DNA of 50,488 nucleotides from a virus. Taxonomy: Duplodnaviria > Caudoviricetes. Made by a program: the position numbers and the translations under genes. Below the pieces are notes generated by a model, which was not told the DNA's origin, made no database searches, and saw nothing but the letters and a program-made list of their open reading frames with translations. The first letter of the stretch is position 1, and every line of letters begins with the position of its first letter. This document shows, piece by piece, positions 7,030 to 30,619 of the stretch. The stretch is from the IMG/VR virus record IMGVR_UViG_3300005326_000058, positions 1 through 50,488 of that record; one strand, 5' to 3'.

Positions 7030-7503
7030 TTACATCTTTAGGAATAATGAAATGATAATAGCAGCCAAGGACAATGATATGAATATAAGGGATGTGGTGA
7101 TTGATATCTTCCTATCCAACCATTTATCAGACTTTAATTCATCCTTAGACTCTTCATCTTCATCTTTATGAGTCTTGTCTTCCATCCTACTTATGCGGCT
7201 GTTGAAATCAATTAACCTTTGCTCTTCCTGGTTAACAGCCCGGCCCAGGTTAACAACTCTACGGGCTAACTGTAAAGATTCACTGGCCAGATCATCCACC
7301 ACGTCTTCAGCCTCATGTATCTTTTTCTCTATCCGGGTTAATCGTTGGCTGTCTGTGAATGAATCATCAGACCTTCCATCAGTGATTGCGTGTTGTATGT
7401 CTCTTTTACGTTCGGTTCTGTCTATTGCTTTCTCTTTTTTTTGAACCATTTCCTCATCCGTGGAACCATTCATGTGTTCTGGTTGGGGTGTCATGTGATT
7501 CAA
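7030..7503 (-). CDS. Coiled-coil protein with C-terminal transmembrane helix
   Basis: Heptad-rich body; hydrophobic C-terminus ISITTSLIFISLSLAAIIISLFL. Confidence 0.7.
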   Translation of the reverse strand: MNHMTPQPEHMNGSTDEEMVQKKEKAIDRTERKRDIQHAITDGRSDDSFTDSQRLTRIEKKIHEAEDVVDDLASESLQLARRVVNLGRAVNQEEQRLIDFNSRISRMEDKTHKDEDEESKDELKSDKWLDRKISITTSLIFISLSLAAIIISLFLKM

Positions 7504-9532: not shown

Positions 9533-10444
9533 TCAATGCTTAACTCTGACTTTATTTTTATAATACTTCCAGTAACTAGGATTCATAGGGTCATTGTCAG
9601 AGTAGTCTTTAGGGTTCTGTTCTTCAAAAATCATCCCAGTTTCAGCTTCATACTTTTTATAAGCTTTATCATGGGCTTCTTTGATTACATTACGTTTTTT
9701 TGGAGTCCTTTTCCTAGATTTTCTTTGGGTGAAATCAACTGGTGGAAAATCTTGAACAGTTGCAGCAACCTTTTTAATAGGAGTTAAGTCATAAAGAGTA
9801 AACCCTGGATGAATAATTGGAGCTTTAAGAACCAGCCCACACCTTGGATTGGAACAAATCAAGAGGGCTCTTTCAACTAAGCTTTGGTTATTCCCACATT
9901 CAGGGCATTTTAAAGAGTTTTCTTTCAAATATGAAGTACTAATATGGTACAGGTCATCGGCTGTAACATATTGGTGTGAAGGGGATGACCCCGTGTCGGG
10001 GTCTTTTTGTCTTCCCTTACTATACCCTGTATGAAAAGTCTCTTTTTTCTCAGATTGTAGGTTTAACCATTCACTATAAAATGAAAGGTTATATGTTAAT
10101 TTGGTTTCATATATTATTGTATGGGTAAATCCTAGGTATGTTATTGTTTCTAATTTGTAAATAAACCCAATGCTACACCCATTTATTGTTATAGTTGGTA
10201 TTAACTTTCTTTGTTTGATTGTGCCTAATGGTTTTAGATTCTCCCTTTTCTTATTTTTTAAATAATTTTTTCTCCTTGAAGCCCGGTTACTTTCCAGAAT
10301 AGAATGGTGCCTACACTTAGCAGAACAATATTGTTTATTTGGTTGGGTGGTGAAGAATAGTTTAATGCAGCTTCTTTTAGACCCTCTACAATTTTTCAAA
10401 TATACTTTTGTTTGCTTTGGGTTGGATTGAACATGAGCAGTCAT
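9533..10444 (-). CDS. Zinc-finger protein with a TFIIB/TFB-like zinc ribbon; candidate transcription regulator
   Basis: N-terminal C..C/YCS..C finger; CPECGNNQSLVERALLICSNPRCGLVL resembles the TFB N-terminal ribbon. Confidence 0.55.
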   Translation of the reverse strand: MTAHVQSNPKQTKVYLKNCRGSKRSCIKLFFTTQPNKQYCSAKCRHHSILESNRASRRKNYLKNKKRENLKPLGTIKQRKLIPTITINGCSIGFIYKLETITYLGFTHTIIYETKLTYNLSFYSEWLNLQSEKKETFHTGYSKGRQKDPDTGSSPSHQYVTADDLYHISTSYLKENSLKCPECGNNQSLVERALLICSNPRCGLVLKAPIIHPGFTLYDLTPIKKVAATVQDFPPVDFTQRKSRKRTPKKRNVIKEAHDKAYKKYEAETGMIFEEQNPKDYSDNDPMNPSYWKYYKNKVRVKH

Positions 10445-11400
10445 TGGATCCCTCCATTACTTCCCATAGTCTCTCCGAACCATTGAATAATATAATTTGA
10501 GAAAAGTTGAACCCATGTTTTACGTTTGTAATTAGTTTTAGGATGGCAGGATTTGCACAAAGTTATTAGGTTAGTTGGTTCATTGTTTTCTTTATTGTAG
10601 TCAATGTGATGTATTACTAAGTCTTGCTTAGCCCCGCATAATTGGCATTGGTTGTTGTCTCGTTTTTTAATCTTGGATTTTAATATCTCATTGAAATCAT
10701 GAGGATAAATCTCATCACTGATTCCTTCGTAATAGTAGGGCCTTTCCTGAAGTATTGCACATTTGTTACTGCAATAAATCATTTCACTTTTTATGAACCT
10801 ATGATTCAATCCCTTTTTACCTAATCGGACTTTATCTTTAACTATTTCATAATTATGAGAGTTTACAACATATTTTCGTTTCTTTTTGATTGGCTTACCG
10901 CACTCCTGACATTTAGTTACAAATTGTAAATCATAGCAATCAAAACAGTAAGGCACGAACTTATTATATTTAAAAATGGTTCCACATTTTTTGCATTTCT
11001 GTGTTCTTAATCCGGAGTCTCTGCAATGAGGATCACAAAAAATATTTTCAGAATCTTCATATTTTTTATGCACCACACGATCTTTTCCACAATATTTACA
11101 TTTCTTTATTATGAAATCCGGATCATTTTTTTTATAACAGTTCCAGGAACAATATTCTTTCTTCCAAGCGTCCTTCTTTCTTAAACTCTTTGTTGGAATA
11201 AACTTAGAATTGCAAGTAAGACACCTATCTTCACTTTTACTAATTTCTATTATCTCCTTGCATTCATCCCTATAATTACGACATGAACTGCAAACCTTTA
11301 CTTTCCTACTCCTCTTTTTTGGATAAATTTCCCCACACCATGAACATATAAAAATGGATCCTATATTTAATGCTAATTCTTGTGCTAAATCCAATCTCAT
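10441..11400 (-). CDS. HNH endonuclease with multiple CxxC zinc-finger repeats
   Basis: C-terminal RDNNQCQLCG...IHHIDY-K-NN...NLITLC.SCH; repeated C..CG / YCS..C motifs; AT-rich. Confidence 0.88.
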   Translation of the reverse strand: MRLDLAQELALNIGSIFICSWCGEIYPKKRSRKVKVCSSCRNYRDECKEIIEISKSEDRCLTCNSKFIPTKSLRKKDAWKKEYCSWNCYKKNDPDFIIKKCKYCGKDRVVHKKYEDSENIFCDPHCRDSGLRTQKCKKCGTIFKYNKFVPYCFDCYDLQFVTKCQECGKPIKKKRKYVVNSHNYEIVKDKVRLGKKGLNHRFIKSEMIYCSNKCAILQERPYYYEGISDEIYPHDFNEILKSKIKKRDNNQCQLCGAKQDLVIHHIDYNKENNEPTNLITLCKSCHPKTNYKRKTWVQLFSNYIIQWFGETMGSNGGIQ

Positions 11401-13431: not shown

Positions 13432-13685
13432 GTTATCAATCCCAAAACACTAGTGGAAAAATACATTAAAAAAACAAAAGTCATCCAATTATTATGGTCC
13501 TTGTATGCAGAAATAGCGAAAATAGAATTGCATATTAACCATATAGGGAAACAAAGAATGTTTCCAATTGCGTTTAAATAAGCTCCTGCCAGGGCAAAAA
13601 TAGAAGCTAATGTCATTATAATTGTTTGCGTACTCTTAAATCGGGTTAAATTTATTGTATCGCCTCCCAAGTACTGCCATTCCAT
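13425..13685 (-). CDS. Small PnuC-like / SemiSWEET-like three-TM membrane protein
   Basis: GAYLNA...CFPIWLICN pattern with three hydrophobic helices. Confidence 0.55.
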   Translation of the reverse strand: MEWQYLGGDTINLTRFKSTQTIIMTLASIFALAGAYLNAIGNILCFPIWLICNSIFAISAYKDHNNWMTFVFLMYFSTSVLGLITW

Positions 13686-14617: not shown

Positions 14618-15364
14618 TTAAAACACCTCCAAGGTTGATTGTTTATCTGGTTTCATAATCGTGAATCCGGGTAAAGGCTCTTCCGGGGTAGCCATGGCTT
14701 CTATCATTTTAATATATTTAATTTCCCTTTCAGAAACCATCCTACAATGAGGGACACCATTATATTGATTCATACTTTCATTAACCCTCCACGCACTATA
14801 GAAGTCTTGACTTAACGTATTATGCCAAATAACCAAGCCATCAACACCATGCAAAAGGAAGTTTACAACTGTCATCAGTACGCAGGTATGGTCAAGATCT
14901 TCAGCAACCATGAATGATCCAGGGTGTTTGACATGTGCTGATAATAGGCACCGGCCACTTCCAACTGTAGGGTCATTAATCCTAATCCGGCCCTGACATG
15001 TTTTCGGTAAACTAAGGGCAGTGAGTAAGTCTGATATGTCTGGAGGTGTGAAAAACTGACCGGCCTTCTCACGCTGATAAGGAGTGCTCACGCATGGCTC
15101 ATAATATGTACCTGGGAAATCAAACCATGATTTATCAGTGACTAATCTTTCTTCTAAAACCATGATCATCTCCACGTACATATCCCAGAGAATCTTGATT
15201 TCAGATTTAGAATAATTCTTATCCCATTTTGGAAATTCTCCTATGGCATGAGCGAGAATAATGTATTCTAACCAGTCATCGAAGACCCTGGCCAGGTCAT
15301 GCTTATCAGTGAGCTTACCGATCAGTTTATGGAAGTTTTCAAATCCTGTTGGAACATCAACCAT
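14618..15364 (-). CDS. N6-adenine methyltransferase-like (HsdM-type) protein lacking the NPP(Y/F) motif
   Basis: GQFFTP, DPTVGSGRCL and EDLD motifs present; no NPPY/F found. Confidence 0.8.
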   Translation of the reverse strand: MVDVPTGFENFHKLIGKLTDKHDLARVFDDWLEYIILAHAIGEFPKWDKNYSKSEIKILWDMYVEMIMVLEERLVTDKSWFDFPGTYYEPCVSTPYQREKAGQFFTPPDISDLLTALSLPKTCQGRIRINDPTVGSGRCLLSAHVKHPGSFMVAEDLDHTCVLMTVVNFLLHGVDGLVIWHNTLSQDFYSAWRVNESMNQYNGVPHCRMVSEREIKYIKMIEAMATPEEPLPGFTIMKPDKQSTLEVF

Positions 15365-15698
15365 TAAACCCCTCCAAAGGGCACCGTTTAGGAAATCCGT
15401 TTAGCTGTTCCTTAAATTCAGGTTGCTTATCGAAATCAAACATAATATCAGTTCCATCATACCAGGAAGACTGCCAGATGATAAAATTCAAAGAATTGTA
15501 TGCACGGCCCCTGACATTATCTCTTAAACTCTTTTTAGGATCATACCAACACTCCAATTGTGGCCCACCAAAAGAAGTTCCGAAATATTCCTGGAAATTA
15601 TATCCCAGGTAAGATTCCATTATTGGAACTTTGTCTTCTTGACCATGGTCATTAAAGGGGCAATCACAACACCTGGTTATTTTAAAGACTTTATTCAT
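15357..15698 (-). CDS. Cys-containing hypothetical protein
   Basis: CCDCPF...CPL; start reassigned to MNKVFK (GGAGG RBS; TAATG coupling). Confidence 0.6.
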   Translation of the reverse strand: MNKVFKITRCCDCPFNDHGQEDKVPIMESYLGYNFQEYFGTSFGGPQLECWYDPKKSLRDNVRGRAYNSLNFIIWQSSWYDGTDIMFDFDKQPEFKEQLNGFPKRCPLEGFNG

Positions 15699-15856
15699 TA
15701 AAAACCCTCCAGTAAAGGTAAGCAATCGTTTTCCCCTGATTTCCTGAAATGGTAACACTGTCCAATTATGCAACCTTCCCATCTTTCGTGAGGAACTCCA
15801 TGGTTACATGCAGCTGCATTACTGCATTTGTCAGCATGTTCACAGATCACTTTCAT
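15698..15856 (-). CDS. Small Cys/His-rich protein (52 aa)
   Basis: Hand translation MKVICEHADKC...CNHGVPH...C...CYH...C; start and stop coupled to both neighbours. Confidence 0.6.
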   Translation of the reverse strand: MKVICEHADKCSNAAACNHGVPHERWEGCIIGQCYHFRKSGENDCLPLLEGF

Positions 15857-15999
15857 TCACTCCCTCCTTCCTGTCCTATGATATGCTTTTGATACCATTT
15901 GCTGTTCTTTCTCCATTCATCCATGCAGGGCGGGCAGACATTATGCACCTTAGATTCGCTTTCAAAAGGTTCTTTGCAGACAATGCATTTAACTTTCAT
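15853..15999 (-). CDS. Small zinc-finger protein (48 aa)
   Basis: MKVKCIVCKEPF...VCPPC; ATGA coupling. Confidence 0.6.
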   Translation of the reverse strand: MKVKCIVCKEPFESESKVHNVCPPCMDEWRKNSKWYQKHIIGQEGGSE

Positions 16000-16202
16000 T
16001 CAAACACCTCTTCACCTTCGCAAATAAGGTAAACTTCACCATAACCAACCGTATAGGATTCTACAACTCCGTTAAAATTATAAATGGTGCCGTTGCTTAA
16101 CTCTCCTTTTGTTTTAATCGGCATCCCTATTCTTTCCTCTTCATCTATAGAAAAGAAAGCTTCAGCTTGTTCTGGGCTTAACATGATTTTATGTTTCATC
16201 AA
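15996..16202 (-). CDS. Hypothetical protein
   Basis: ORF in the operon with GGAGG RBS. Confidence 0.6.
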   Translation of the reverse strand: MMKHKIMLSPEQAEAFFSIDEEERIGMPIKTKGELSNGTIYNFNGVVESYTVGYGEVYLICEGEEVFE

Positions 16203-16287: not shown

Positions 16288-16602
16288 CTATGCAGTCTTT
16301 GAAGTCTTCTGACATCCGCAACCCTCCAAGGTAGCCTGTGCATTAACTCCCTTAACCTCTGCCAGTTTAAACATAGCAGCCAATACATGTTTACAAGCGA
16401 AACTACCATTAGCCTTCTTATGCCGGTTATTGAAATCAGGGCAGATGCACCTCCAAACCCCTTCTTCAACATCATAATCAACCATATAAGTCTCCTTCTT
16501 TGATTTCACATTGAAAAACATGTAATCAGAATCAGAATAATCTAATTCAACATTCCCTTTCAAATATAATTGGAAACCTTTGGTTATTCTATCTTGTTTC
16601 GT
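16288..16602 (-). CDS. SWIM zinc-finger protein, possible ACG start
   Basis: CxC...CKH motif (WRCICPDF...ACKHVLA); frame extends from the TTG at 16563 to ACG after GGAGGGAGG. Confidence 0.8.
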   Translation of the reverse strand, partial: TKQDRITKGFQLYLKGNVELDYSDSDYMFFNVKSKKETYMVDYDVEEGVWRCICPDFNNRHKKANGSFACKHVLAAMFKLAEVKGVNAQATLEGCGCQKTSKTA

Positions 16603-17428
16603 GTTCCTCCCTCCCTTTTAGAACTGCATTATATGCCTCTTCCTCGGTTTTGAATGATCCAAGGTATATCCTTTTTTTATTAATATTGATATTAGCTTGC
16701 CACTTTTTAGTGGATTTATTATAGCTGACTCCTTTGAATCTGCTTGTATTATTGGGATTGATATATCTGGGAGGCTCATTACCTAATTTCAATTCTTTTT
16801 TTGCTTTGTTGTATGCCTTAGAGGCATCTATCTCTGAATCAAAGCTTCCAAGATAATAATATTTCCCGTTTTTATTAATAGCTGCTTGCCACGATTTATA
16901 TGAATGTCGAACCCCTAAATATTTACTAGATTTTTTTAAATCTCCTCTTTTTAAAAAGGTGCATCCTCTTTTATATCCTTCATTTGCTAATTCAAAATGT
17001 TCAGCAGCTGTTTTTTCATTGCTAAAATATCCAAGTTTATAAGTAACCTTATCTTTTACAATTTGAACACCCCATTTTTGCATATTAACATCCCATGTAA
17101 CCCCTGGGTATTTAGATGATGTTGTATGCTTATTCAGGGCATTTTCTCTTGCAGTTACAATCCTTAAATTAATTCTTCTGTTATCTAATGTGTTTCCATT
17201 TATATGATCTACATGTTTCCCGTTAGGAGCGTTAGTTATTACTCTATGCATTTTAACCTGTTTGCGTTCGGCCCTGGTTGTGTATTCATCTTTTAATTGG
17301 GGTCTAACAACATAAAATCCTTTAACACCAGGACTCCATGCCGCCTGCCATTTCCATTGCATTAAATATTCATAATCTTCATCGTCTACCAACGTTTCTT
17401 GGCTTTGAGTTAATGGGATTTTTTTCAT
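16589..17428 (-). CDS. HNH-AP2 homing endonuclease with three AP2 domains
   Basis: MHRVI...VDHINGNTLDNRR.NLR followed by three SKY.GV...W.A.I....Y.LG.F..E.A repeats. Confidence 0.92.
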   Translation of the reverse strand: MKKIPLTQSQETLVDDEDYEYLMQWKWQAAWSPGVKGFYVVRPQLKDEYTTRAERKQVKMHRVITNAPNGKHVDHINGNTLDNRRINLRIVTARENALNKHTTSSKYPGVTWDVNMQKWGVQIVKDKVTYKLGYFSNEKTAAEHFELANEGYKRGCTFLKRGDLKKSSKYLGVRHSYKSWQAAINKNGKYYYLGSFDSEIDASKAYNKAKKELKLGNEPPRYINPNNTSRFKGVSYNKSTKKWQANININKKRIYLGSFKTEEEAYNAVLKGREEHETR

Positions 17429-22611: not shown

Positions 22612-22807
22612 AACTTATTCCCCCTCTTTCCTCCCAAATGCAGCGTAGTCTATTATTATAGGTTCGATATCATCCCAGTCCATGTCTGCAACACTTTTTT
22701 TTCCGTTCATAGTTTTCACAACCGTTTATGATAAGAATCTGGGAAGGAGTTCCAGGCATGGCGGGCCTGTTGGGTTTCTTCCCACACTATAACATTGGTG
22801 TTAATGG

Positions 22808-22845
22808 TATAAATACTTTACTGTAAATGCTGTATTTACTGTAAT
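22808..22845 (-). promoter_or_regulatory. Archaeal promoter with tandem TACAG operator boxes, copy 1
   Basis: Minus strand TTACAGTAAATACAGCATTTACAGTAAAGTATTTATA (BRE-like AAAG plus TTTATA); nearly identical to 24535..24572. Confidence 0.7.
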
Positions 22846-22930
22846 ATAATAATATAAATATAATATATATAATATAATAATAATTATAATAATATAAATA
22901 ATAAATAAATAATAAAGTAAAAAAGAGTAA
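22843..22930. other. Near-pure A/T tract; candidate origin unwinding element
   Basis: About 70 consecutive A/T bases (ATA/AATA microrepeats) in an intergenic region beside replication-related genes. Confidence 0.55.
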
Positions 22931-23045
22931 AAGCGTGTGTATAGCTTGGCTGCATATCTGTATACCTTATACACATGTCGAAAAAAGATATATAAATTTG
23001 AGATATGTGTAGTGTGTATACTACCTACAGCCATCATGAGGAGTT

Positions 23046-23636
23046 TCATGATCGAAATTCCTCTTCTAAAATTGATTGGAGTTTATCAGATTCTAAATTC
23101 AAACCATAAGCCCATCTTTTTACATCACTCTGGTTTAATTTTCCTTCATTCTCATATTGCCTTTTAAAAAAAGCTTTAGCTTTATCAATCTCGTCCTTAG
23201 GTTTTTCAGTGCTAAAATAAGATTCTAAATTCAACTTAGTTAATTCTCCAGAATTAACAGGATCTATAATTTCCTTTTTGACAAGTTTCTTAATATCTCC
23301 CATACTCAAATTCAGTTGAACCCGCCTGACATCAAGTACAGGATCATGAATAACATTATCATTCAAATAACCTCTAGCCAGGTCCTTGAGAACTTCGGCC
23401 TGGGAATCGGGATCGATTATAATTTCATCCCTAAGTTTATCCATTTCATTTTCAACATTCGTCAATTGTTTCAATAATACGTCCCTTTTTTCTTCTAATA
23501 CTGCATAATTACTATTTTTACCCATTAAAAATTTATATCCTTCAATTAATGCTTTAGATGGACCAATACCTTTCTTCTTTCCTGCTTCTATCAATTCCTC
23601 ATGTTCTTTCTTAATATATACGTTGAGACGAGCCAT
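23046..23636 (-). CDS. Protein with N-terminal RHH-like domain and coiled coil; possible regulator or initiator
   Basis: MARLNVYIKKEHEELIE...PSKALIEG beta-alpha-alpha pattern. Confidence 0.55.
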   Translation of the reverse strand: MARLNVYIKKEHEELIEAGKKKGIGPSKALIEGYKFLMGKNSNYAVLEEKRDVLLKQLTNVENEMDKLRDEIIIDPDSQAEVLKDLARGYLNDNVIHDPVLDVRRVQLNLSMGDIKKLVKKEIIDPVNSGELTKLNLESYFSTEKPKDEIDKAKAFFKRQYENEGKLNQSDVKRWAYGLNLESDKLQSILEEEFRS

Positions 23637-24490
23637 TATGCCACCCTCAGATAGCCTTTTTGAGGTTCATAAACTATTCCTCGCCTTTTTAAATACATTA
23701 TATGATTACTAGTTCCTTCTCCACACAAATTATGATTATCCTCCATTATTTCAATTAAAACGTTAATAGGAGCCCTACCTCCATATTCTCCTTCCAATTC
23801 CAGAATATGCTTTTTCATTAAATTTATTTTTTCACCATCAATCCTAGAAGCCTCTCTTTTTTTAATAACTTCCTCATATTCTTCTTTATACTCAGATTTA
23901 TCAATAATTACCCGATATAATCCTCCTTTGGCCCTATAAATCCACCCCATTTCGATTAAATCTTTCAGAATAGATAAAGTAAATCCTTCAGATTTCTGGT
24001 AATCCTGGGCCATTACTGCAATTATTGTAAACTTATTGATTCCTACATCAATAGATTCATCAAAAAGAATATCATTATTTTTTTCAAATTCTTTAAGAAC
24101 TTCCCAGACTAAACAGTGATTCTGTGTAGCAGTAATTCCATTAATTTTAAATACATCGTCAATATCATCATTGATTACATCATGTGAACTTATTGGTGCA
24201 ATATCTAAATTTTCACCATGGATTGAATATTTATTCACTCTAAAACAATCAATAAATGATTTCAACCCATATTCATACCTAAACCATTCCCCTGATTCTC
24301 TATACTCGTCAAATATTAGATGTAATGTTTTTTCTAGTGTTTCGTCTCCAGGAATTGTATAAAGTAAATTAAGTTTAACTGGATTAGCAGTTTGTAAATC
24401 CCTTAAACGTTTTTTAGGATTCTTAGCAATCCCTATTTTAACAAATTCTCCAGCAAGAATAAAATAAATTTGTTTAATCTCAGAACCCAT
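23636..24490 (-). CDS. GIY-YIG (T5orf172/MUG113-like) domain fused to MCM-type winged-helix domains
   Basis: IYFI...VKIG.A.NP.KRL.DLQTANP...E..LH..F...R..GEWF; C-terminal YGGRAPINVLI...GIVYEPQKGYLRV. Confidence 0.8.
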   Translation of the reverse strand: MGSEIKQIYFILAGEFVKIGIAKNPKKRLRDLQTANPVKLNLLYTIPGDETLEKTLHLIFDEYRESGEWFRYEYGLKSFIDCFRVNKYSIHGENLDIAPISSHDVINDDIDDVFKINGITATQNHCLVWEVLKEFEKNNDILFDESIDVGINKFTIIAVMAQDYQKSEGFTLSILKDLIEMGWIYRAKGGLYRVIIDKSEYKEEYEEVIKKREASRIDGEKINLMKKHILELEGEYGGRAPINVLIEIMEDNHNLCGEGTSNHIMYLKRRGIVYEPQKGYLRVA

Positions 24491-24534
24491 GAAATCCCTC
24501 CTTGACTTTCATGGTTAATATTTTATTTAAATAA

Positions 24535-24572
24535 TATAAATACTTTACTGTAATGTCTGTATTTACAGTAAA
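24535..24572 (-). promoter_or_regulatory. Archaeal promoter with tandem TACWG operator boxes, copy 2 (divergent control region)
   Basis: Minus strand TTTACTGTAAATACAGACATTACAGTAAAGTATTTATA. Confidence 0.7.
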
Positions 24573-24651
24573 TAAATAATAAGTATAAATAGTTGAAAAC
24601 ATAAAGAATATAAATAGTAATTGCGATATAACCTGTAAAGGAGGTGAAGCT

Positions 24652-24819
24652 ATGGGAAAAATATACTTCCAACCAGAATTAAGTGATTCGACTGAAGCTG
24701 AATTTAGAGAGAAAGCAAATAAACGATATAAAAACAAACATGGAGCATTCAATAAAACCATTATAGATCTGATTGAAGCATTTGTTAATGGAGATATTGA
24801 ACTACCTGTAGTAGAATAA
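24652..24819 (+). CDS. Small RHH-like regulator (55 aa)
   Basis: Hand translation MGKIYFQPELSDSTEAEFREKA...GAFNKTIIDLIEAFV; strong AGGAGGTGA RBS; absent from the ORF track. Confidence 0.75.
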   Translation: MGKIYFQPELSDSTEAEFREKANKRYKNKHGAFNKTIIDLIEAFVNGDIELPVVE

Positions 24820-24969
24820 CCCTCTTCCTTTTCAATTTCACAACCATTCTGGCCCTGGTTTTCCAGGGCTTCACTATCATAACTATTTTCAACATGTTCC
24901 AAAATGGAACATACTCCCAGGACCTGGATCCTACCTGCAGCTGTAATCATAGATCTACACCTGCAGTGG

Positions 24970-25546: not shown

Positions 25547-25816
25547 ATGAAAAAGGTAAATGTGTGTGGAAGGGTTGATATTGAAGTCCTGCAAACATTC
25601 AACGAAAACATCAAACAATTAAAAGGCAAACCATTTGGCAGTAAAGGCCGTGGCCTGGAAACATCAATGAGAATCATGAACAATTATTTCAGGATCTATG
25701 AGGATAGAACACTCATCAGCATTGCAGAGGAATTAAACCTGCAACCCTGGGAACTTGGAGAGGTGATAATAAAACAGTGGATTGAAATGTATAGGAAAGT
25801 ACATGAAGATAATTAA
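25547..25816 (+). CDS. RHH-like regulator
   Basis: MKKVNVCGRVDIEVLQTF...KG..LETSM pattern; convergent with the integrase. Confidence 0.55.
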   Translation: MKKVNVCGRVDIEVLQTFNENIKQLKGKPFGSKGRGLETSMRIMNNYFRIYEDRTLISIAEELNLQPWELGEVIIKQWIEMYRKVHEDN

Positions 25817-27003
25817 CCGTTTAATTCATTTTCTTCACGTTCTAATTCTTCCCTTATCTTATCACGGTTTTCCAGGGCCTTGATTTTAAGTTTATGCTCC
25901 TTTAATTCCTGGAGAATCTGTTGATTGATTTCTTTCATTTCCTGCAGGGCTTCACTTTCCCGCTCTACCGTGGTGATATTTTCTTTGAATGTAATCCGGT
26001 GTAATCCTTTCTTATATTCTTCTAATAAGTTTTTATCATTCTTCTTAAAGTAATTACGGTCCACCCCTGCCATTTTATGACCCATCATGAGCCTTATCTT
26101 TCGGTAGTCAAGGCCTTCATCATCCAGTTCATTTGCAAAGAACACCCTGAAAGATTTTGAAGTTACATAGCTGTAATTCCCCACCTGTTTACCTTTCCAT
26201 CCTAGATTTTTGTTCTGTCTCAGGAGATAAACCCGTACAGCTTCATAACCTAACCTGGTTTGTTTCCCCCGGGCCCTGAATAATGGTACCTCCAGGTTTT
26301 CAGGTGGATGGCTCGTCATGTAAAATAGAATGTTGTGCAAGGATTCAGGACTGCTATATGTGATGTGTTGCTGATCTGTTTTGATTCTCCACATACGCCA
26401 TACTGGTATGATTTCAGGGTATTTCTCACTAATTTCATATAGACCTTCCAGGCTGTTTACTTCGGTTTCTTCAATCTCGGATAATTTGAAATAGTAATTC
26501 ACTGCCCGGATGAGTTCTTTCACTGTGATACTGCTGGCGTCTGCATAGTTCATTGCAGTGCTGGCCATGAATGTGAACAGTGCCTCGTATTGTACGTTGC
26601 AGAACTGGAATAATCTTTGCATGTCCTGGTATTGTGGGAGGTCTTCATAGAGTACATAATATGATTTGGGTACTCCTTTAATTTCCTTCTCGGGAGTTTT
26701 AACTTCAAAGTAACGGTAGAACATCTTTATTATTGTCATTATGTTCTTTATATTCGCATTCCCGAACTCCCTATCATTCTGGAGGTAGTCAACGAAAGAA
26801 TCAAAATGGTCACTGATTTCCCGTTCATCCATCCAGGGGTGTTTTGTCTGGTCTTCCCTGGCTTCCCGGATTAATTCAGTGGGTGTTTTATTTAAATAAG
26901 AAGTGTAATAATTTATTTCCTTAATATACCGCCCAATTGTGCTTTGTTTTCGCTGTTTTGCTTTGAGGAATTTCTGGAGTTGGCGGTCCTGGGTGATGTC
27001 CAT
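25813..27003 (-). CDS. int: Tyrosine recombinase / integrase
   Basis: Core-binding N-domain; KSFR.FFANEL and MMGH...NY catalytic region; coiled-coil tail; TATA ~25 bp upstream of the ATG suggests a leaderless mRNA. Confidence 0.9.
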   Translation of the reverse strand: MDITQDRQLQKFLKAKQRKQSTIGRYIKEINYYTSYLNKTPTELIREAREDQTKHPWMDEREISDHFDSFVDYLQNDREFGNANIKNIMTIIKMFYRYFEVKTPEKEIKGVPKSYYVLYEDLPQYQDMQRLFQFCNVQYEALFTFMASTAMNYADASSITVKELIRAVNYYFKLSEIEETEVNSLEGLYEISEKYPEIIPVWRMWRIKTDQQHITYSSPESLHNILFYMTSHPPENLEVPLFRARGKQTRLGYEAVRVYLLRQNKNLGWKGKQVGNYSYVTSKSFRVFFANELDDEGLDYRKIRLMMGHKMAGVDRNYFKKNDKNLLEEYKKGLHRITFKENITTVERESEALQEMKEINQQILQELKEHKLKIKALENRDKIREELEREENELNG

Positions 27004-29932: not shown

Positions 29933-30619
29933 TTATGTGATCCCATCATCCGTGTTGACCCAATGTTCATCAATCACCACTGGTTTAGCATAACTCGAAC
30001 ACCAGTAACTCCCAATATCATAATCACTACTGGCAGCAGCTGCTAAATCAACATTAACCCAATTGCTCCCTAACTCGTAGCCTTTAACTTGGAGTATGAT
30101 GTGTCCCCCGCTTTTGCAGGTTACACGGCAGTAACGGACATCATACCATAAGTCCTTAGCCACTGCAAAGCCTAACTGGGAGTGGTCAGTACAATTAAGG
30201 GATTGGTTGTTGGTTAATCGTTTAATCTCATCACCTAAACCGTACACGTCATTGTAGTAGCCTTCCCAGGACTTCTTTTTGATTTGGTTGTAGTATTCTG
30301 TGAAGGTTGTATAGGTTCCTACGGCTTTTTCTACGGCTTGGTGTAGGCTTGATTTCTCTGTTGGAGGTTTATTGGTTGGTGTTGGGGGTTGGAAGTAGAT
30401 TTTAGTCGGTTCAACTCCGTTATCATTGACATATTTCATATAACGCATACGCATTGACTGGAAGGTTGGGAATAACACCCAATCCTTCTTAGTTGCAATG
30501 TCAATATAGACTTTTTCCGGGTCCGTTCCTTTAGTGTTAAACCAGTTATCTACACGATTTGCCATGTCCCATAATTTAGAAAGTGACACGTAGCCATCTG
30601 TTTTACTTAAATCAGCCAT
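29933..30619 (-). CDS. Pseudomurein endoisopeptidase-like endolysin (PeiW/PeiP-type)
   Basis: LNCTD...YC.V.C..GGH..LQV.G..W..VDLAAA Cys-His-Asp triad; N-terminal region resembling pseudomurein-binding repeats; Pro/Thr linker. Confidence 0.85.
   Translation of the reverse strand: MADLSKTDGYVSLSKLWDMANRVDNWFNTKGTDPEKVYIDIATKKDWVLFPTFQSMRMRYMKYVNDNGVEPTKIYFQPPTPTNKPPTEKSSLHQAVEKAVGTYTTFTEYYNQIKKKSWEGYYNDVYGLGDEIKRLTNNQSLNCTDHSQLGFAVAKDLWYDVRYCRVTCKSGGHIILQVKGYELGSNWVNVDLAAAASSDYDIGSYWCSSYAKPVVIDEHWVNTDDGIT

Follow-up and report, generated by a model that had tools for sequence, protein, structure and literature searches.

A gene on the minus strand of a virus that probably infects Methanobacteriales (23636..24490; 284 aa) encodes a GIY-YIG domain followed by two winged helices (wH), an inner one and a C-terminal one that derives, by its sequence, from the MCM helicase of a host clade. 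Positions refer to the window, which is the whole stretch of DNA analysed, 50,488 bases. Our preferred reading, to which we assign a probability of roughly 0.45, is that this MCM tail, cut from the host clade's helicase, docks on origin-bound Orc1/Cdc6-1 in the stead of MCM. With Orc1/Cdc6-1 occupied, helicase loading would be blocked, and the predicted nuclease would be brought to ORB-type origins, either on the host chromosome or on competing elements; the virus, having no ORBs, would be spared from its own nuclease. The fusion gene would be expressed with the early lytic genes under one repressor.

The fusion protein and its virus

The record carries genes for terminase, portal, capsid and tape-measure proteins, which mark a tailed virus. 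A tyrosine integrase (25813..27003, minus strand) suggests a temperate lifestyle, and a gene for the pseudomurein endoisopeptidase Pei (29933..30619, minus strand; PF12386, E 7.8e-11) points to Methanobacteriales as the host group; by its gene content, this is probably a tailed, temperate virus of that order. Pfam names no helicase, primase or polymerase among the 30 + 23 window ORFs scanned, which are a subset of its ORFs. A host Cdc6-1 query finds no viral match (best E 0.32). As originally predicted, the viral genome also encodes no MCM motor, since tblastn with host MCM matches the tail alone (host residues 604-670). The protein is therefore not an MCM, as both the N-terminal OB/Zn domain and the AAA+ motor are missing from its sequence. 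Two more HNH genes lie at 10441-11400 and 16589-17428, one of them with an AP2 domain, and a similar HNH gene occupies another position in the related locus L021. A related virus carries a PCNA-like gene (L002:15497-16285; 262 aa; PF00705, E 5e-5) whose counterpart is absent from the window.

An assembly chimera is ruled out for the fusion gene because a contig from a second study spans 23000-24844 without a gap and with 4 differences. Five full-length relatives were found, and reading frames are intact in all six family members. Scans of viral contigs using the fusion gene, the tail and two neighbours recovered a single related virus, and a genome scan using the whole fusion family as query gave no match.

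The T5orf172/MUG113 GIY-YIG domain occupies residues 6-80 (24251..24475, minus strand); residues 13-76 match MUG113 (PF13455, 5.5e-12) and T5orf172 (PF10544, 7.9e-8), both over the cut-off. Across 15 fusion proteins Y9, K18, G20, R28 and E68 are invariant, and E53 and H57 are at least 90% conserved. The active-site Tyr, Arg and Glu thus appear to be present as Y9, R28 and E53, with roles assigned from the motif; a catalytic role for the Arg and Glu is suggested by analogy with the protein described in PMC8263062. We consequently describe the fusion protein as a predicted nuclease. Between viruses, dN/dS of this domain is 0.12-0.26. A search for relatives of the nuclease domain of 498-2000 aa found none, which is weak evidence, as the 495-aa proteins L080 and L081 described below fall just outside that range.

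The C-terminal wH comprises residues 216-284 (23639..23845, minus strand). Pfam assigns residues 221-282 to PF21120, MCM_WH_arc (E 1.8e-17; 63.6 bits, with the cut-off at 26.1), and lists this family alone for the tail, with no generic wH family. The C-terminus of M. thermautotrophicus MCM (2ma3) is the sole PDB sequence match at E<=1 among 177,635 (E 3.5e-11). The tail model (pLDDT 83-91 over residues 221-284) has a wH fold truncated to three helices and is nearest to MCM tails: of the 48,161 solved chains compared, 2ma3 ranks first (Z 13.2, rmsd 1.5, 67 aligned) and the Sulfolobus MCM tail 2m45 second (Z 12.6), with the Rpa2 wH (10.8) and other wH domains behind them. Sequence and fold searches thus bear out the original prediction of a GIY-YIG domain joined to the MCM wH, and generic wH domains do not match equally well. 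On sequence grounds, the protein is a true member of both the T5orf172 and the MCM-wH families.

Over 67 residues the tail shares 55% identity with the MCM of a host locus (L027), and 78% identity is reached by the relatives P0002 and P0003. For all six family members the best match among the 9 hosts compared is the MCM tail of one Methanobacterium clade. Consistently, 18 of 328 Methanobacteriales genomes score 113-116 bits and the next scores 95.6, with a tail profile that is weighted to P0002 and P0003. This clade takes in M. ferruginis, Methanobacterium sp. MZD130B and, we assume, M. formicicum. Sequence comparison thus identifies the tail as derived from MCM of the host clade. A tail tree of 60 rows is mostly unresolved (8 of 57 branches starred). 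Synonymous sites of the viral tail are saturated against the sampled hosts while the protein is still host-like; saturation alone gives no capture date, because two hosts already differ at pS 0.59. In one chromosome record the mcm region occurs twice (L029 and L030), probably through assembly overlap, and single assemblies carry frameshifts in cdc6-1 (L075/L076) and mcm (L096) that are probably sequencing errors.

The viral tail is under purifying selection, with dN/dS below 1 in all six viral pairs (0.16-0.69). Its dN of 0.45-0.67, against 0.13-0.18 for the nuclease domain, corresponds to an approximately threefold higher rate of change, whereas the host MCM tail is almost frozen (dN 0.006 at dS 1.14). 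Conservation is concentrated in the block EGEYGGRAP, where helix 1 ends with GGxAP, and in the end of alpha3 and the beta-hairpin; many of the conserved residues (Gly, Pro, Leu, Tyr) may have been retained for the fold, as some surely have. Drift is seen in the turn between alpha2 and alpha3, and the tail remains close to neutral in net charge (-5 to +4 in 14 fusions versus -3 to +1 in 17 hosts). Purifying selection, a drifting turn and neutral charge indicate a tail that is maintained but relaxed, unlike a rebuilt DNA-binding wH.

This record of selection bears on whether the tail is a neutral, functionless remnant of a captured mcm fragment. Archaea are known to carry MCM copies that are truncated or degenerate (PMC7776575; also described in the available part of PMC3914693), and one frameshifted host mcm and two matches without an ORF turned up among the 20 secondary matches retrieved from host genomes (see below). 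However, the dN/dS values and the six intact frames, together with the C-terminal position of the tail in 56 of 60 non-MCM proteins among the matches listed, make such a remnant very improbable.

Between nuclease and tail lies the inner wH (residues 123-195; 23906..24124, minus strand), modelled with helices at 123-138, 153-164 and 168-181 and strands at 184-187 and 191-194. The original prediction had described it as a second, more diverged wH. The model upholds the wH fold, and we take the domain to be real in that sense; its likeness to MCM is weak, at 9.7 bits (iE 7e-4) against a host-MCM wH profile and 13.8-24.3 bits for five relatives. This domain is optional, being missing from P0004 and P0006, and is swapped between close relatives.

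Exchange of modules is also evident at the boundary of the nuclease domain. The locus L020 is 94% identical to the window through the end of that domain (up to 24233) and different thereafter, so that a constant nuclease is joined to swapped C-terminal modules. Such an arrangement would suit a free-standing homing-type endonuclease that reuses wH domains for DNA binding, with the MCM tail as raw material rather than a mimic. T5orf172 genes of ICP1-like phages are described in the consulted part of PMC10448857 as putative homing endonucleases with shuffled DNA-binding parts, and they resemble the fusion protein in nuclease domain and swapped accessory domains; they differ in that the accessory domain here is a host replication-protein module, with homing predicted at most. 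MacMCM without its wH was also reported to have lower DNA affinity in the absence of ATP (PMC13049513, available part). Against this reading, the tail is charge-neutral and wingless, its recognition-helix region drifts, and its protein sequence stays host-like despite synonymous saturation. No empty allele was seen, as all 4 distinct loci carry some version of the fusion gene, although they were located via that gene or its neighbour. Because the majority of tail fusions are also nuclease-free (next section), we consider a homing-type endonuclease unlikely.

Detached MCM tails in other archaea

A tail profile search of 1.84 billion representatives gave 399 matches. Among the 147 matches listed besides the fusion family, the MCM core accounts for 58 alignments, another 29 are short fragments, and in the remaining 60 the tail is preceded by at least 49 other residues; two of these 60 look spurious and four retain MCM remnants. 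A Pfam scan of 63 tail-bearing proteins found GIY-YIG in 7, HNH in 2 and Mrr in 3, the others having small or unnamed domains. With a PIN-bearing protein (L091) in addition to these 12, four unrelated nuclease folds bear the MCM tail. Cutting is nevertheless not a general function of tail fusions, because 51 of the 63 proteins scanned have no Pfam nuclease. Judged by sequence, the constant element across the archaeal fusions is the tail, not the nuclease.

A match to PF21120 occurs in 296 of 301 Methanobacteriaceae genomes. When 52 of these genomes with extra or weak matches were searched again, 20 secondary matches were retrieved: two GIY-YIG-AAA-tail proteins, one divergent full MCM, four AAA-tail proteins lacking the N-terminal part, two HEAT-tail, one PIN-tail, one tail-HNH and six small-domain-tail proteins, and the three degenerate cases mentioned above. 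About 40 weak PF21120 matches lie in frames of 155-210 aa (E 1e-8 to 1e-3), from which L098 and L099 were retrieved. A genome scan with the tail returned host-type mcm genes or fragments at 46 of 46 loci, a plasmid search gave no match, and five phage records match the host tail, every one within a long helicase-type gene.

The two GIY-YIG-AAA-tail proteins (L080:8036-9520 and L081:8196-9680) carry an MCM AAA+ domain that has Walker A and lacks the Walker B Glu, and each is possibly a dominant-negative subunit or a defence effector. L081 is surrounded by OLD-nuclease, MrfA-like helicase and Mre11/Rad50/HerA-type genes in a defence-like island. These forms invite a path from MCM through nuclease-AAA-tail to nuclease-tail, which we rejected: in the nuclease tree the AAA-bearing forms nest inside tail-only forms (93/91 and 93/86). 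Because of this nesting the direction of domain gain or loss is not established, and repeated recapture of the tail is at least as likely as a stepwise path from MCM.

The genomic settings of the other tail genes vary. The PIN-tail gene follows an HD gene; three others (L090, L094 and L086) have ordinary metabolic or signalling genes as neighbours. In one Methanobacteriaceae genome Pycsar adjoins BREX, with a small tail-bearing gene in between (L089:4497-15699). Two provirus-like regions contain a split MCM, one as an AAA+-tail gene followed by a separate N-terminal/OB gene (L087:869-3061), the other next to an HNH gene (L083:8006-9082). Gene 72 of the cultured halovirus HHTV-1 (L130:46924-47712) probably carries a detached MCM tail. 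Its tail match is sub-threshold (E 0.0019) and is accompanied by a fold match; ahead of the tail is a D...ExK motif, which we take to mark a PD-(D/E)xK-like nuclease family, and a methyltransferase gene adjoins.

We tentatively propose, as a possibility that falls well short of even odds, that across Euryarchaeota the MCM tail serves as a portable tag, which finds and docks on origin-bound Orc1/Cdc6 through protein mimicry. Repeated fusion of the local mcm tail to GIY-YIG, HNH, Mrr, PIN, PD-(D/E)xK-like and other domains, in viruses, proviruses and defence islands, would have yielded origin-directed nucleases in viruses and, in hosts, integrated-decoy sensors of foreign initiators.

Proposed docking on the initiator, and known relatives

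The original prediction drew on a contact between Orc1 and the MCM wH in Sulfolobus. This contact is stated in the accessible part of PMC12141716, where the MCM wH contacts ORB-bound Orc1-1, and origin-bound Orc1-1 is the one outside partner of an archaeal MCM tail that we found reported. The wH is also described as wingless, and Sulfolobus MCM binds DNA without needing it (PMC4357721, accessible part). Docking of the viral tail on Cdc6-1 is the most likely reading because of the Sulfolobus contact, the effects of the wH on MCM in cis, and the precedent of ICP1 Odn. Against it, the copy shares no more than 55% identity with the host tail and evolves faster than the nuclease domain. In addition, the wH-Orc1 contact is reported for Sulfolobus, and the part of PMC2553600 consulted describes other contacts: M. 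thermautotrophicus Cdc6 attaches to MCM through its wH, and with T. acidophilum Cdc6-2 no binding was seen to MCM's N-terminal or C-terminal part in isolation.

The cis effects could instead indicate that the tail acts in trans on MCM or on another replisome partner, damping ATPase or ring assembly or riding the fork and cutting. In MCM the wH damps activity, lowering ATPase and helicase activity and impeding oligomerisation (PMC4357721 and PMC13049513, in the parts available), and the proteins that combine GIY-YIG, a Walker-B-less MCM AAA+ domain and the tail could join MCM rings. However, the wH effects are intramolecular and need the linker and the start of helix 1, which are lost in P0001, P0004 and P0006. 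The virus moreover needs host MCM, because it has none of its own. We regard action on MCM as quite improbable.

ICP1 Odn (Gp88), which cuts satellite origins, is a T5orf172 nuclease with an acquired RepA_N domain (PMC8263062, in the part available). Like Odn, the fusion protein is a chimeric, modular product that joins a viral T5orf172 GIY-YIG domain to a module of a replication protein taken from an opponent. The two differ in that the RepA_N module reads iterons in DNA whereas the MCM wH is a predicted protein binder, and in that the fusion protein has an archaeal host, a reversed domain order and an activity predicted from sequence. The captured module is an MCM tail and not RepA_N, so the fusion protein is not of the Odn type by membership; by analogy, it may work like Odn, via protein mimicry.

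Archaeal MCM wH domains (PF21120; 2MA3, 2M45; PMC4357721, part available) share with the viral tail both fold and sequence, at the identities given above. The viral copy is unlike them in being detached from the N-terminal and AAA+ domains, preceded by a wH and a nuclease domain, and diverged in its linker, the start of helix 1 and the alpha2-alpha3 turn. Extra copies of MCM and Orc1/Cdc6 in archaeal viruses, plasmids and integrated elements likewise represent capture of replication-initiation genes (PMC3914693, part available), but these are whole helicases or initiators, whereas the fusion gene retains the tail alone. A staphylococcal phage inhibitor of the helicase loader DnaI targets a host AAA+ helicase loader, as is proposed here; that system is bacterial, and the accessible part of PMC4887207 indicates neither helicase mimicry nor a nuclease. 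A review mentions MCM homologues reduced to part of the C-terminus (PMC7776575). In literature outside subscription papers we found no description of nuclease-tail fusions or of MCM-tail mimicry, and the recurrence of the tail on unrelated archaeal proteins points to a putative, undescribed way of attacking or sensing replication origins.

How small archaeal viruses lacking a helicase take over host replication is largely open, and a detached tail under selection is a candidate weapon or adaptor at the loading step. If our preferred reading is true, the Odn principle of a nuclease plus a stolen replication module extends from DNA recognition to protein mimicry. Natural tail variants mark which surface of the MCM tail matters, and would probe the Sulfolobus wH-Orc1 loading mode in methanogens and haloarchaea. 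The probable HHTV-1 example makes tail function testable in a genetic system.

The locus and the candidate viral origin

The host ORB core TTACACTTGAAA occurs 115 times upstream of cdc6-1, at 21 of 21 loci. In the virus, 17 matches at 2 mismatches compare with 14.7 expected, none being perfect and none near the fusion gene, and matches at <=1 mismatch are absent from all four relative loci. The suggestion that host initiators are redirected to the adjacent viral origin is consequently disfavoured in its direct form, as ORBs are not above chance in the virus.

We compared four distinct loci: the window, L002 (equivalent to L017-L019), L020 and L021. Of these, L017 and L019 are identical stretches in one 95.9-kb contig, in which the virus is doubled, probably through assembly overlap. 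All four share the order of a small divergent regulator, the fusion gene and an overlapping RHH-coiled-coil gene, and all three of sufficient length continue with short repeats, an AT tract and a promoter. In the window the overlapping gene (23046..23636, minus strand; 196 aa) encodes a candidate viral origin-binding protein with a ribbon-helix-helix-like N-terminal part, a coiled coil and two small helical domains, an architecture offered as a lead only (scores <0.9); Pfam, PHROG and Foldseek gave no match. Directly after it lie four short TATACA/TGTATA repeats (22938..23021) and an AT-only tract (22846..22930), the candidate unwinding element of a viral origin. The downstream gene exists as two unrelated types, and the short repeats vary with them, relatives with the alternative type having TATACG in place of TATACA/TGTATA (3 loci compared).

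Upstream of the fusion gene is a TATA-like promoter with two palindromic TTACWGTAA operators (24535..24571, minus strand), and a second copy of this pair (22808..22844, minus strand) heads the downstream early-gene operon; the motif occurs at just 4 places in 50,488 bases. These repeats were rejected as ORBs, to which the likeness is superficial: they are palindromic promoter operators. A divergent 55-aa gene (24652..24819, plus strand), RHH-like by eye, is the candidate repressor of both promoters. The operator motif varies with regulator type: L021, which carries the operator pair at both places too, shares an identical 55-aa regulator, and L002 has a different regulator (an RHH_3 gene) and a different shared motif. 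We infer that one repressor governs both early promoters and that the downstream protein reads the viral origin.

This neighbourhood raises the alternative of a helper at the viral origin. Either the tail would bind the RHH-coiled-coil protein, which may stand in for Orc1 by recruiting host MCM through the MCM tail, or it would bridge to host Orc1; the fusion protein would thereby regulate helicase loading or nick the origin to switch replication mode. The overlap of the two genes, with repeats and AT tract directly downstream at the three loci, is consistent with such a role, as is the annotation, in two phages, of genes with T5orf172 domains as a replication initiator or a DnaD-like loader. 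The provirus L098 adds a convergent layout in which this arrangement recurs but the components differ, with a wH-HNH gene, an RHH-coiled-coil gene and, at the position equivalent to the window's, an AT tract flanked by ORB-like boxes. This convergence supports the assignment of the viral origin. The inclusion of ORB-like boxes and of the element's own Cdc6 speaks more for a role at the viral origin than for attack, and the layout may represent a natural target class or, alternatively, serve the element's own origin. However, the downstream gene types are unrelated, and which of them is present does not depend on the tail type: in L002 and L020 nearly identical fusion genes have different downstream partners, L020 combining a middle and tail as in L002 with a downstream gene as in the window. 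The virus also lacks ORBs, and most tail fusions of host genomes are not next to an RHH-coiled-coil-type gene. We therefore hold a helper at the viral origin to be rather unlikely, and docking on host Orc1/Cdc6-1 remains our preferred reading.

In L098 itself (7060-7345, 13450-13640 and 15126-16001) ORB-like boxes form two clusters, and the provirus carries a Cdc6 of its own besides the tail-HNH gene; this Cdc6 of approximately 291 aa has the lid and seemingly lacks the C-terminal wH. Finally, three viruses share some 100 bases of conserved non-coding sequence after the downstream promoter despite their differing operators (window 22700-22800; L002:9565-9680; L021:2690-2790), possibly a structured leader RNA.
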